From Enterococcus phage Revolver, in sequence record PV544177.1: a DNA stretch of 64,000 bases, one strand, 5' to 3'. Position numbers and translations under genes: made by a program. The notes below the pieces were generated by a model, which was given only the letters and a program-made list of their open reading frames with translations, did no database searches and was not told the origin of the DNA. Of this stretch, positions 36,462-39,744 are shown one piece after another. Each line of letters starts with the position of its first letter. Within the stretch, counting starts at the first letter, position 1.

Positions 36462-37256
36462 TTGGCAAGCACGGAAAAATACAATATTTTCGTACCTATT
36501 GATATTGAAAATTCAATCCTAAAGTCTGAGTCACAAGACGGAGGGGAATGGTATGTACAGGGGTATGCTACAACACCTGACCTCGACCTACAAGGGGACA
36601 TCATACTACCACAAGGAATAGACATCTCTTATTTCATTTCTAAGGGATGGATAAACTATGAGCATAAGAACGAAGCAGAATACATTATAGGAGCCCCTAC
36701 AGATAACTGCTATGTGGATATTAATAAAGGTTTATTTGTAGAAGCAAAATTAATGAAGGAAAACAAGCACGCTCAGTCAATGTGGAAACTAGCTAATGCA
36801 ATACAAAAATCAGGAATAAGACGTAATTTAGGATTCTCGATTGAGGGAGCAGTAGTTAGTAGGAATGCAAGAGACAATAGAATTATCGAGGCAGTAGTTA
36901 TTCACAATGTAGCGCTAACTACTCACCCGGCTAACCCACAAGCTACGTGGGAGACACTAGTTAAATCATGGACAACAGGTTATGAAAGTTCACCTGAAAC
37001 GCAAGTAGATGGTGGGGCATTGCGTAGAGAAATGTTCAAACAAGACATTACGAATCTAACATATGCAGTCCAAACTATAAGTAATTTATATGGTAAAAAA
37101 CCTGATGAAAAGGAGTTTATTCTCCGAGAAGTTGCAAAAAGTATTGAAATGGACACTTCTGAAAAGGAGTTAACTAAATTTATGTTACAATTAAGTAGAG
37201 GGGTATCTTACAAGGAAGCCTCCGCTTTTATAGAAGAAAGAGAGGGGAACAAATAG
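36462..37256 (+). CDS. prohead maturation protease (HK97/S78 family)
   Basis: GYATTPDLDLQGDIILPQG...NYEHK...GFSIEGAV layout with the His...Ser (SIEG) catalytic arrangement. The C-terminal region shares a ~40-aa motif with the MCP N-terminus. Confidence 0.7.
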   Translation: MASTEKYNIFVPIDIENSILKSESQDGGEWYVQGYATTPDLDLQGDIILPQGIDISYFISKGWINYEHKNEAEYIIGAPTDNCYVDINKGLFVEAKLMKENKHAQSMWKLANAIQKSGIRRNLGFSIEGAVVSRNARDNRIIEAVVIHNVALTTHPANPQATWETLVKSWTTGYESSPETQVDGGALRREMFKQDITNLTYAVQTISNLYGKKPDEKEFILREVAKSIEMDTSEKELTKFMLQLSRGVSYKEASAFIEEREGNK

Positions 37257-38206
37257 TGGTTAAAACAATTAATGACGTTATCAAAGATTTTGACAATAAA
37301 CTAAATAATGCAGTCACAGAAACAGAAGAGGAAGACATTACGAAGTCTACCGAAACCGAGGAAGGTGCGGAAGAAACTACTGCATTAGATGAAGAGGTGG
37401 CTGAGGTAGCTGGAACAGAAGAAGACACTACAGAAGACACTGCAGAAGACACGGTTACAGATACAGAGGAAGCTACAGAGGAAGAAGTTACAGAAGAACC
37501 TGAATCTGTAGAGAAATCAAGTAAAGAGGACGAAGAGGACAAGGAGGAAGAAGAAGAGGAAGAAGAGAAAGACAAAGAAAAGAAAAAAGATAAAGAAGAC
37601 AAAGAAGAAGACAAAGAAGAAGACGAAGAAGACGAAGAAGTTAAAAAGTCCGAAGATGTCGAAGAACCTACAGAAGAGGTAGAAAGCCTAATTAAGTCGG
37701 CAGATTTACTAGGGGCTATAGAAATGGTATTTAAAAACTTACATGATGTTATTAAAACAAATGCTGAGTTAAACGATAAGTTAGACAAACTTTCTCAAGA
37801 GTTCCAAGAAGCTAAAGCTGTTAAAGAAGAAGTAGCAAAATCAGCTAACGTAGACACAGAGCTCAAAAAAGGTGTTGAAGACATTGAAGGTAAAGCAGTT
37901 GGATACCTAAATAAATCAATAGATGTTGAAGAGCCCGTAGAAGCTACAGAAGCTACAGAAGATACTACAGAAGTAGTTGTAGACGGTGAAACGGTGGTAG
38001 AACCTGAAAAAACTTTCTACGAACAGATTCAAGAAATTCGTACAGACTTCATAGAAACATATAAACGTGTATCACAATCAGGTGTAGCATCACGTGGTGA
38101 AATTGAAGAAGCTCGTCATTTATGGACAGGTCTTGTCGATGACGGTAGCGAAAAGACTAGCAAAGACTTAGAAAAAGTTAAATCATTTATCAATAAATTT
38201 AAATAA
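37256..38206 (+). CDS. acidic scaffold-like protein (GTG start, poly-Glu/Asp N-terminal half, helical C-terminal half)
   Basis: Position between protease and capsid gene. Extreme acidity (EEEEEEE, DEEDEE runs). Confidence 0.5.
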   Translation: MVKTINDVIKDFDNKLNNAVTETEEEDITKSTETEEGAEETTALDEEVAEVAGTEEDTTEDTAEDTVTDTEEATEEEVTEEPESVEKSSKEDEEDKEEEEEEEEKDKEKKKDKEDKEEDKEEDEEDEEVKKSEDVEEPTEEVESLIKSADLLGAIEMVFKNLHDVIKTNAELNDKLDKLSQEFQEAKAVKEEVAKSANVDTELKKGVEDIEGKAVGYLNKSIDVEEPVEATEATEDTTEVVVDGETVVEPEKTFYEQIQEIRTDFIETYKRVSQSGVASRGEIEEARHLWTGLVDDGSEKTSKDLEKVKSFINKFK

Positions 38207-38239
38207 TTTTACTATATAGTGAACTATTTTAAGAACAAC

Positions 38240-38251
38240 TGCTATATTAAT
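38240..38251 (+). promoter_or_regulatory. TGCTATATTAAT extended -10 element upstream of the capsid gene
   Basis: Recurring motif. Confidence 0.45.
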
Positions 38252-38346
38252 AAGCAGAAAGAACAAAGACCTAACATTCCCTCCTGAACCTCCACAGGGT
38301 TAGGTCTTCCTTTGAGAGGAATACAAGGAAAGGTGATAAACAAAAA

Positions 38347-39744
38347 ATGACAGAAAACAAAAATACAGAACGCCAATTAACTTCCGTTCAAGAGGAAGTA
38401 ATTAAAGGTTTTACAACAGGATATGGTATTACACCAGATACACAAACTGATGCCGCCGCTTTAAGACGAGAGTTCTTAGACGACCAAATCACTATGTTAA
38501 CATGGGCAGAAGGAGACTTATCATTCTATCGTGATATTACAAAACGTCCTGCAACATCAACTGTAGCTAAATATGACACTTATCTATCACATGGACGTGT
38601 AGGACATACTCGTTTCACACGTGAAATCGGAGTAGCTCCTGTATCAGACCCTAACTTACGTCAAAAAACAGTTAACATGAAATATGTTTCTGATACTAAA
38701 AACATGAGTATTGCAACAGGCTTAGTTAACAACATTGAAGACCCAATGCGTATCTTGACTGACGATGCTATCTCAGTTGTTGCTAAAACAATTGAATGGG
38801 CTTCTTTCTACGGAGATGCAGATTTATCTGAAAACCCAGAACAAGGTTCAGGTTTAGAGTTTGACGGTTTAATTAAATTAATCGATGAGCACAACGTATT
38901 AGATGCTAGAGGTACTAGCCTTTCAGAAGCGTTACTAAATCAGGCGGCGGTAATCATCGGTAAAGGTTATGGTACTCCAACTGATGCTTATATGCCTATT
39001 GGTGTCCAAGCTGACTTTGTTAACCAACAACTAGACCGCCAATACCAATTAGTAAGTGACAACGGACAAGACGTAACAATGGGCTTCAACGTTAAAGGAT
39101 TTAACTCAGCTCGTGGTTTAATCAAATTACATGGTTCTACTGTAATGGAATTAGAACAAATCTTAGACGAACACCAAATGCAATTACCAAATGCTCCACA
39201 AAGAGCAACCGTAAAAGCAACTGTAGAAGCAGGTAAAGGTAAATTCCGTGATGAAGATTTAGTGGCTCCTGTAGAATATAAAGTAGTAGTTGTATCTGAT
39301 GAAGCAGAATCTGCACCATCTGATGTAGCAACTGCAACTATCGATGACAAAACTAAACAAGTTAAATTAGAAATTACAGTTAACAACATGTACCAAGCAC
39401 GTCCTCAATACGTAGCTATCTACCGTAAAGGTTTAGAAACAGGCTTATTCTATCAAATCGCTAGAGTACCTGCTAAATTAGCTAATTCAGGTGTTATCAC
39501 TTTCATTGATACTAACGAAGAAATCCCTGAAACAGCAGACGTGTTCGTTGGTGAGTTAACTCCATCAGTAGTTCACTTGTTTGAATTATTACCAATGATG
39601 CGCTTACCATTAGCACAAATTAATGCTTCTGTAACATTCGCAGTTTTATGGTATGGAGCTTTAGCATTACGTGCACCTAAAAAATGGGCTCGCATTAAGA
39701 ACGTTAAATACATCCCAACAGCAAATGTCTTTAACGAACGCTAG
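38347..39744 (+). CDS. major capsid protein (HK97 fold)
   Basis: 465 aa directly after protease and scaffold. N-terminal propeptide-like segment. Strong downstream terminator. Confidence 0.75.
   Translation: MTENKNTERQLTSVQEEVIKGFTTGYGITPDTQTDAAALRREFLDDQITMLTWAEGDLSFYRDITKRPATSTVAKYDTYLSHGRVGHTRFTREIGVAPVSDPNLRQKTVNMKYVSDTKNMSIATGLVNNIEDPMRILTDDAISVVAKTIEWASFYGDADLSENPEQGSGLEFDGLIKLIDEHNVLDARGTSLSEALLNQAAVIIGKGYGTPTDAYMPIGVQADFVNQQLDRQYQLVSDNGQDVTMGFNVKGFNSARGLIKLHGSTVMELEQILDEHQMQLPNAPQRATVKATVEAGKGKFRDEDLVAPVEYKVVVVSDEAESAPSDVATATIDDKTKQVKLEITVNNMYQARPQYVAIYRKGLETGLFYQIARVPAKLANSGVITFIDTNEEIPETADVFVGELTPSVVHLFELLPMMRLPLAQINASVTFAVLWYGALALRAPKKWARIKNVKYIPTANVFNER

Follow-up and report, generated by a model that had tools for sequence, protein, structure and literature searches.

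Why would a phage maturation protease carry, behind its catalytic domain, a copy of part of the major capsid protein (MCP)? This question is raised by the head-morphogenesis block of Enterococcus phage Revolver (sequence record PV544177.1), of which a stretch of 64,000 nucleotides (nt), referred to here as the window, was analysed. A segment of about 40 amino acids (aa) close to the MCP's N-terminus recurs in the C-terminal part of the prohead serine protease, and the gene for an acidic scaffold-like protein lies between the two (Table 1). The portal, protease, scaffold and MCP genes were all assigned by PHROGs and are of the Herelleviridae (SPO1/Twort) myovirus type. Members of this family include the principal phages for therapy and biocontrol against Staphylococcus (K, phi812), Listeria (A511, P100) and Enterococcus (phiEF24C-like). 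To our knowledge, the head assembly pathway of the family has barely been characterised, and how maturation proteases enter shells in set numbers and are released there has been worked out in a few systems only (HK97, T4, giant phages and herpesviruses). The evidence presented below suggests that the shared segment is a two-part module, in which a short cleavage site (P5-P1') is followed by an N-arm stretch of about 34 aa after the cut, and that on the protease this module may serve both release and docking.

The protease and the MCP share a single segment

Comparison of the protease with the MCP by BLASTP gave a single significant ungapped segment, linking protease aa 164-202 (ETLVKSWTTGYESSPETQVDGGALRREMFKQDITNLTYA, nt 36951-37067) with MCP aa 16-54 (EEVIKGFTTGYGITPDTQTDAAALRREFLDDQITMLTWA, nt 38392-38508), in which 20 of the 39 residues are identical (51%) and 26 of 39 are positives (E = 9e-10). 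The similarity is reciprocal at the profile level, with the MCP N-terminus matching the protease profile phrog_1028 (E = 1.1e-13) and the C-terminal part of the protease matching the MCP profile phrog_752 (E = 8.5e-6), while a search of the PDB with the protease matched the phi812 MCP chains solely via the shared segment. A hidden Markov model (HMM) of the motif, comprising 42 columns and built from 18 phage lineages, was run on the window translated in all six frames and matched exactly two open reading frames (ORFs; E = 6.5e-25 and, for the protease copy, 9.5e-25). No third copy was found by the HMM in its maximum-sensitivity mode in the scaffold gene, the portal gene or the rest of the window, the next best match having E = 0.9. 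The peptide GYATTPD in the N-terminal part of the catalytic domain (protease aa 34-40, 36561-36581), which resembles the GYGITPD of the motif, scored at chance level (HMM domain E = 20) and probably corresponds to the N-terminal GYA motif common in S78 proteases.

The segment is short (39 aa), but chance resemblance or a low-complexity artefact is excluded for practical purposes by the BLASTP E-value, the reciprocal profile matches, the restriction of the HMM matches to these two ORFs and the conservation of the motif across hundreds of phage genomes. The first-pass annotation of this DNA, made from the sequence alone, had proposed such a protease/MCP motif, and the pairing proves to be real. 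Both of its peptide strings are correct and the interval that it gave, 36960-38540, spans both copies and the gene between them. It described the copies as colinear and put their identity at about 45%.

A cleavage-site consensus opens both copies

Processing of the MCP can be read from relatives. In GenBank record X91069 (Listeria phage A511 cps) the coding sequence (CDS) runs from 1726 to 3129 (1726..3129) and the mature peptide is annotated at 1795..3126, so that 23 aa are removed. Translation of the record places the cut at MPKNNKEEVKEVNLNSVQEDALK↓SFTTGYGITPDTQTDAGALRRE, i.e. ...VQEDALK↓SFTTGYGITPDTQ (K23↓S24; the arrow marks the scissile bond). Edman sequencing by Loessner and Scherer (1995) is reported to underlie this annotation. 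In phi812, the capsid chains 9ROW/9ROX/9ROZ comprise 439 aa and start at SFQTGYGITPDTQ (SFQTGYG), while the full-length 5LII chain is 463 aa long, with ...QEDVVK preceding this start in the 24 additional residues. MCP residue K20 of the window aligns to A511 K23↓S24 and to the start of the mature phi812 chain, and the equivalent cut is thus predicted, from this alignment, at K20↓G21, with removal of a 20-aa propeptide. Lysine at P1 is present in 52/52 MCP homologs and E or D at P5 in 48/52, with V/A/L/I at P3, S/G/T/A at P1' and mostly F at P2'. The A511 Cps and the phi812/K MCP (X91069; 5LII, 9ROW/9ROX/9ROZ) share the site ...(E/D)xxxK↓(S/G)FxTGYGITP with the window, and the motif forms their mature N-terminus, as is predicted for the window MCP. 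The cut precedes the long part of the motif (TTGY...ALRRE...ITxLT), which remains part of the mature MCP; among the ORFs of the window this long part otherwise occurs on the protease only. This arrangement is not that of a T4-type capsid targeting sequence, a short N-terminal propeptide that directs its protein to the core before being removed, since the shared motif follows the cut, stays on the mature MCP and is internal/C-terminal in the protease. The MCP arm (aa 22-54) is also better conserved than aa 55-465, with mean top-residue frequencies of 0.79 and 0.73, respectively.

Two further proposals of the first-pass annotation can be judged here. It had placed the motif at an N-terminal processing site about 22 aa into the MCP, which agrees with A511 and phi812 as to the site; the distance needs a small correction, the segment of the window beginning at residue 16 and the bond K20↓G21 being preceded by 20 aa. 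A mature MCP with its full N-terminus, which it had named as contrary evidence, is seen neither in the A511 annotation nor in the phi812 9ROW chains. Its choice between a protease cleavage site and a docking peptide seems to dissolve, adjacent parts of the segment fitting both. However, only about six residues (P5-P1') form the cleavage signal, and no support was obtained for the interaction with the portal that it had suggested.

The protease copy opens with the same kind of site. In the AlphaFold2 (AF2) model of the protease the mean predicted local distance difference test score (pLDDT) is 78, with values mostly of 87-97 over aa 31-160 and of about 61 over aa 21-30 and 161-170. The catalytic domain has an assemblin/gp21-like fold, Foldseek aligning the model with the Epstein-Barr virus protease (1o6e, E = 6e-5), with the proteases of Kaposi's sarcoma-associated herpesvirus, pseudorabies virus, varicella-zoster virus and human cytomegalovirus, and with T4 gp21 (5jbl, target-normalised TM-score 0.53). 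Residues H68 and S126 are invariant in 67 protease homologs and would, by analogy, form the catalytic pair. The strand at aa 162-168 ends at K168 and is followed by a flexible linker (aa 168-177, pLDDT < 50) and by helices at aa 185-210, 214-227, 234-246 and 250-262, the first of which covers the second half of the motif copy. The C-terminal extension (aa 169-264) is thus joined to the catalytic domain by a flexible linker. Because the last strand ends at K168, with the low-confidence linker and the helices following, K168↓S169 represents an exposed consensus site at the boundary of the catalytic domain. Among the 67 homologs, K168, a hydrophobic residue at 166 (F/L/V/I) and S/T/A/G at 169 are each present in 67/67, W163 and E/D164 in 66/67 each and W/F/Y at 170 in 63/67. 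The junction sequence WETLVK↓S accords with the sites of the MCP and the scaffold, and self-cleavage of the protease at K168↓S169 is considered very likely.

Taken together, the sites define a consensus, as judged by sequence, of (E/D)-x-hydrophobic-x-K↓(S/G/T/A) for the phage's own protease, probably of the S78 type. The scaffold-like protein of the window, in which the HMM does not detect the long motif, contains nine [VLIFMAY]xK[SGTA] sites where 2.4 would be expected (p = 0.001), candidate cuts including VESLIK↓SADLL, EEDITK↓STETE and VGYLNK↓SIDVE. Across the scaffold-like proteins of 18 lineages 159 such sites occur, against 48.6 expected from shuffles (about 3-fold). The sites typically read EEVxK↓S, and the enrichment is found in every lineage (the window and L002-L029), that of SPO1 included. 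This suggests that the scaffold is cut into peptides of about 20-40 aa by the same protease. Since the scaffold sites are abundant without the long motif, the short site appears to be general and the long motif unneeded for cleavage.

Both copies are conserved across the family and co-vary

The 45-aa MCP segment, used as a tblastn query, matched 1274 places in 713 phage records, with two places in most Staphylococcus, Listeria and Enterococcus Herelleviridae and in many of the Bacillus ones. Alignments revealed both copies in all 20 lineages examined, even where tblastn had given one, among them SPO1, Lactobacillus phage Dionysus and Aerococcus phage AVP. The conservation of the pair in relatives, proposed earlier as a check on the motif, is therefore borne out. 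When a profile of the two window copies was compared with 1.84 billion representative proteins, 42 matches were obtained at E <= 1e-3, which comprised MCPs (about 460-530 aa, with the motif at about 20-65), proteases (about 250-297 aa, motif at about 156-220), fragments and a few longer proteins. The motif is thus essentially confined to MCPs, proteases and protease-scaffold fusions of the Herelleviridae type.

The fusions are represented by a 503-aa protein (P0236), which combines protease, motif and scaffold in one ORF between the portal and the MCP, with no separate scaffold gene. It comes from a related uncultured phage (L031-L033, 4850-6361) and is seen on 24 contigs, and P0255 is a similar fusion. 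Such proteins argue that protease and scaffold form a physical unit. Two other matches were set aside. P0254, considered as a scaffold class beginning with the motif, is an ORF open to the start of its 1049-nt contig and hence a fragment, probably of a protease-scaffold fusion, while P0241 (562 aa) is a repeat protein with six stretches that match profile positions 4-22 only, and was judged unrelated.

Within genomes the two copies resemble each other more than expected. Over 33 positions in 12 lineages, the protease motif is identical to the MCP motif of its own genome at a proportion of 0.515, compared to 0.383 with the MCP motifs of other phages (permutation p = 1e-5). Eight of the 12 protease motifs find their best match in their own MCP, and other lineage sets gave p = 2.5e-4 and 5e-5. 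The SPO1 pair reads LEAGYEVDP..GGDVFRKESL..LKNLSY and LEAGHTVNP..GGGAFRVESL..LHNLSF. Both copies of L031 read SLTTG..NP..M.DGGAIRRESL, with AIRRE in place of the otherwise conserved ALRRE, whose Leu is invariant in the 52 MCPs (L39) and conserved in at least 90% of the proteases (L187). Both copies of L034 read TGYNIGGxDQ, the otherwise (near-)invariant Pro having been lost from each. The same codon is used for identical residues at a frequency of 0.49 within genomes and 0.43 between them (the window has 7/18 and L034 6/18). As this is barely above the between-genome level, recent gene conversion is not the main cause of the resemblance. A duplication that predates the lineages predicts equal similarity throughout, yet own pairs are closer, and the coupling is thus mainly selective, reflecting a shared constraint on both copies. 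The copies of L015 (IMG/VR 3300023205_000255) differ from those of the other lineages in having 17/22 identical codons and an identical run of 22 nt, which may be the trace of a recent gene conversion from one of the two genes to the other.

This conversion-like signature, together with the protease-scaffold fusions in relatives and a protease-MCP fusion family (phrog_617 'major head protein', profile length 626) that matches protease aa 19-177, would also suit a functionless leftover, stemming either from duplication of part of the MCP gene at its 5' end or from the splitting of an ancestral fusion (protease-capsid or protease-scaffold), with the two nearby copies kept alike by occasional gene conversion. 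Such an origin without function is improbable in view of what has been retained. None of the lineages, from SPO1 to the Staphylococcus, Listeria, Enterococcus, Lactobacillus and Aerococcus phages, has lost the copy. Residues G173, P178, A186, L187 and R188 are near-invariant, each being conserved in at least 90% of the 67 protease homologs, and the copy is far more conserved than the next 38 aa (0.61 and 0.34, respectively), while synonymous sites are essentially randomised between the copies in most genomes. Retention, near-invariant residues and randomised synonymous sites point to long-term purifying selection rather than to neutrality or frequent conversion. From these sequence comparisons, the protease copy is best described as a diverged but selectively maintained copy of the N-arm.

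Selection on the copy could alternatively act through extended substrate recognition only, with the cleft and exosites of the protease reading the whole stretch of about 40 aa and no docking role being involved. That both copies open with the same consensus site and an invariant P1 Lys agrees with this, as does some of the co-variation near the cut (SLTTG in L031, TGYNIGG in L034), which co-evolution of the S' subsites would produce. It is nevertheless rather unlikely, given that the scaffold-like proteins are rich in consensus sites without the long motif, that co-variation extends to 16-30 residues past the cut (GGAIRRESL, ESL/ESM, NLS), beyond a typical active-site cleft, and that the MCP copy belongs to the structure of the mature shell.

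A proposed route for the protease into the prohead

The observations are most simply combined by regarding the protease segment as an autocleavage (release) site joined to an N-arm-like docking element that brings the enzyme into the prohead, a reading that is held with middling confidence. In the uncleaved protease, the N-arm copy, perhaps together with the helical domain carrying LQLSxGxS, would bind the partner of the MCP N-arm in the assembling prohead, and the protease would thereby be co-assembled into it. Once active, the enzyme would trim the MCP at K20↓G21 and shred the scaffold-like protein at about nine similar sites, while its own cut at K168↓S169 would free a catalytic domain of about 19 kDa from the anchor, in a manner comparable to cleavage at the release site of herpesvirus assemblin. 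By analogy with other phages, the putative docking partner may be the C-terminal end of the scaffold or a neighbouring shell subunit. Herelleviridae scaffolds share a conserved short C-terminal tail of the type ...F(I/V)xK(F/Y)K. The helical domain itself is also conserved, with L242 and G247 invariant and Q243, L244, S249 and A253 present in at least 90% of the 67 homologs.

A bolder and more tentative form of the proposal is molecular mimicry, in which a pseudo-N-arm on the protease would fill the site of the real N-arm (on the C-terminal end of the scaffold or on adjacent subunits). Co-evolution of the three partners would then set how many enzyme copies are packaged and, via the self-cut at K168↓S169, when they are released. 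If this holds, packaging of the protease would fail or be redirected on exchange of the motif between phages.

Several points weigh against the docking proposal. In the AF2 model of the MCP, aa 15-141 have pLDDT < 50 and no confident structure, so that a common conformation of the two motif copies cannot be claimed. An amphipathic helix in the ALRRE...L half was considered and rejected, the hydrophobic moment of both copies lying under the mean of the shuffles. Where it is close to the scissile bond (P2'-P10'), the co-variation equally fits co-evolution with the protease's own substrate cleft, and ancient or occasional gene conversion between the copies is possible. In the Bacillus phages Hakuna, Beyonphe and Goe27 and in Aerococcus phage AVP the protease copy has drifted and the phage's own MCP is not its best match. 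Full-text literature searching also retrieved no description of protease autoprocessing, or of a need for the protease C-terminus in encapsidation, in the Herelleviridae.

The released part of the protease (aa 169-264) might instead stay in the head as a structural piece that fills empty N-arm sites at special positions, e.g. at the portal vertex. Its conserved folded helical domain with an N-arm-like end would suit such a role, and retention across the family is compatible with a function after cleavage. However, no protease-related chain occurs among the deposited Herelleviridae capsid structures, where the protease query matches MCP chains only, via the motif, and such a function appears very improbable.

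The docking and release proposal has precedents among better known systems. In HK97, whose protease is of the S78 family to which the window protease probably belongs and which has the same principle of C-terminal delivery into the prohead, Duda, Oh and Hendrix in 2013 reportedly described a C-terminal encapsidation signal on the gp4 protease. The targeting region of gp4 is self-removed, and gp5 is cut at K103↓S104, with Lys before Ser as in the window consensus. HK97 differs from the window in lacking a separate scaffold, its delta domain being part of the MCP, and we know of no indication that the gp4 targeting tail is a copy of an MCP segment.

The herpesvirus assemblin precursor (UL26 type) is ordered as protease domain, release (R) site and a C-terminal part that resembles scaffold and contains a maturation (M) site. 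It resembles the window protease in its fold, in the consensus site at the end of the catalytic domain and in the tether-type part that follows. Assemblin cleaves at Ala↓Ser, compared to Lys↓Ser in the window consensus. In the window, moreover, protease and scaffold are separate genes with a 1-nt overlap, and the tether resembles the MCP N-arm rather than the capsid-binding C-terminus of the scaffold. The fusions of the P0236 type resemble the UL26 arrangement more closely.

In Staphylococcus phage 80alpha, the scaffold and capsid proteins are reported to share an N-terminal cleavage motif (Poliakov 2008; Wall 2015), at which a host protease cuts. As in the window, two head proteins thus share a short processed N-terminal motif. 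The part shared in 80alpha is a removed propeptide and the protease is host-encoded, whereas the shared part in the window is mostly retained and is carried by the phage's own protease. The C-terminal helix of the 80alpha scaffold binds the N-arm helix of the MCP, making the N-arm the scaffold docking site in the procapsid (PMC5644958), and for P22 and T7 the site bound by the scaffold lies close to the N-arm (PMC10275583). The proteases of phiKZ and SPN3US (gp245) remove their own C-terminal region at their own consensus, this region having been inferred to target the prohead (PMC5694885). They belong to a different (T4-type) protease family with A-x-E↓ specificity and, unlike the window protease, have no reported mimicry of a capsid protein.

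A protease with a self-removed targeting region is therefore a known scheme, to which a capsid N-arm copy on the protease appears to add a new twist. Knowledge of processing in A511 and phi812 covers the MCP only, and the window adds the protease copy and the co-variation. MCP cleavage in the Herelleviridae was already known, while the protease copy, the co-variation and the family-wide consensus appear undescribed, no account of the protease/MCP motif pair having come up in full-text searching. The consensus (E/D)-x-hydrophobic-x-K↓S predicts the ends of mature MCPs, proteases and scaffold fragments family-wide, which helps proteomics and the reading of cryo-EM (electron cryomicroscopy) maps. 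Packaging of the protease via a capsid N-arm mimic, with release by a cut at the edge of the mimic, is a testable hypothesis, and the co-varying pairs are a natural mutational data set pointing to the residues that matter. If the proposal is confirmed, the 96-aa C-terminal part of the protease could become a cargo-loading tag for such capsids, like the T4 and HK97 targeting signals.

The head gene block and its surroundings

The coordinates of the genes and of the parts of the two proteins are collected in Table 1.

Table 1. Genes of the head block and parts of the protease and MCP in the window
Feature	Position	Strand	Basis
Portal gene	34632-36359		PHROGs E = 2.4e-127; Pfam Phage_portal
Prohead (head-maturation) serine protease gene, 264 aa	36462-37256	+	phrog_1028 'head maturation protease', E = 6.9e-138
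Protease catalytic domain, aa 28-168	36543-36965	+	AF2 model; last beta-strand aa 162-168 (TWETLVK) = P7-P1 of the predicted site
Predicted autocleavage ('release') site, W163-E-T-L-V-K168↓S169	36948-36968	+	Homolog conservation; consensus match
Protease N-arm motif copy, aa 169-202 (SWTTGYESSPETQVDGGALRREMFKQDITNLTYA)	36966-37067	+	BLASTP E = 9e-10; HMM E = 9.5e-25
Protease C-terminal helical domain, aa 203-264, conserved LQLSxGxS (aa 242-249)	37068-37253	+	AF2; no similarity to MCP
Acidic scaffold-like protein gene, 316 aa	37256-38206	+	phrog_1133, E = 2.6e-32
MCP gene, 465 aa, HK97 fold, Herelleviridae type	38347-39744	+	phrog_752, E = 4.2e-200
MCP propeptide, aa 1-20 (MTENKNTERQLTSVQEEVIK), predicted removed	38347-38406	+	Homology to A511 mat_peptide and phi812 9ROW mature chain
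MCP motif copy, aa 21-54 (GFTTGYGITPDTQTDAAALRREFLDDQITMLTWA), mature N-terminus (N-arm)	38407-38508	+	Aligns to residues 1-34 of mature phi812 chain

The gene order portal-protease-scaffold-MCP is found in the window and at every locus examined. Pfam Peptidase_S78 (PF04586) matches the protease at 19.6 bits, which is below the gathering cutoff of 21, while precomputed PF04586 assignments exist for many of its homologs; a match to SU10_MCP in the head block was likewise below threshold. Comparison of the window MCP with the PDB by phmmer gave the phi812 MCP (5lii_P, E = 8e-201; 9row_B, E = 2.6e-197) and SPO1 Gp6.1 (9vel, E = 2.6e-44). The nearest sequenced phages over the structural module are Enterococcus Kochikohdavirus-like phages, with a nucleotide identity of only about 78-82%. 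The MCP has at most 92% identity to any known protein and the exact protease sequence was matched only in Logan metagenome contigs.

Protease and scaffold are neither fused nor nested in the window, unlike those of the herpesvirus UL26/UL26.5, lambda C/Nu3 and P2 gpO type, each having an ORF of its own in a different frame. The protease ends in a TAG stop codon (37254-37256) that shares one base with the GTG start codon of the scaffold at 37256, suggesting tight translational coupling. A programmed frameshift joining the two appears unlikely, no slippery pattern having been seen and the junction varying from a 1-nt overlap in the window to an 18-nt gap in Kayvirus and a 4-nt overlap in Hakuna. 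In Bacillus phage QCM8 (L028, 2505-4260) the protease/scaffold region is annotated as five short hypothetical ORFs, with a protease match at 2505-2849 only, and this broken annotation probably reflects sequencing frameshifts or a disrupted gene.

Mobile elements occur within the head-tail modules of some relatives. An IS200/IS605-family transposase (ISBth15) is present in the head-tail module of Silviavirus CIFT_MFB_MRSA32 (L018, 7377-8585 and 1-2479), where the portal is annotated as two CDS, and a gene for an OrfB_IS605/Cas12f-like TnpB adjoins the head genes of L034 (6685-6775).

Within the window, an inverted repeat (AGACCUAAC...GUUAGGUCU, 38267-38307) lies in the 140 nt that separate the scaffold gene from the MCP gene; the folding energy of the hairpin at about 38267-38307, upstream of the MCP gene, does not differ significantly from that of shuffles (z = -1.63). 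A GC-rich terminator-like hairpin with a T-rich tail (36363-36386) lies directly 3' of the portal gene and ahead of the protease gene. Further upstream of the head genes, the ORFs at 32448-34122 have lysis/cell-wall-like translations (290 aa, and 213 aa with a signal-peptide-like N-terminus), as judged from the translations alone.

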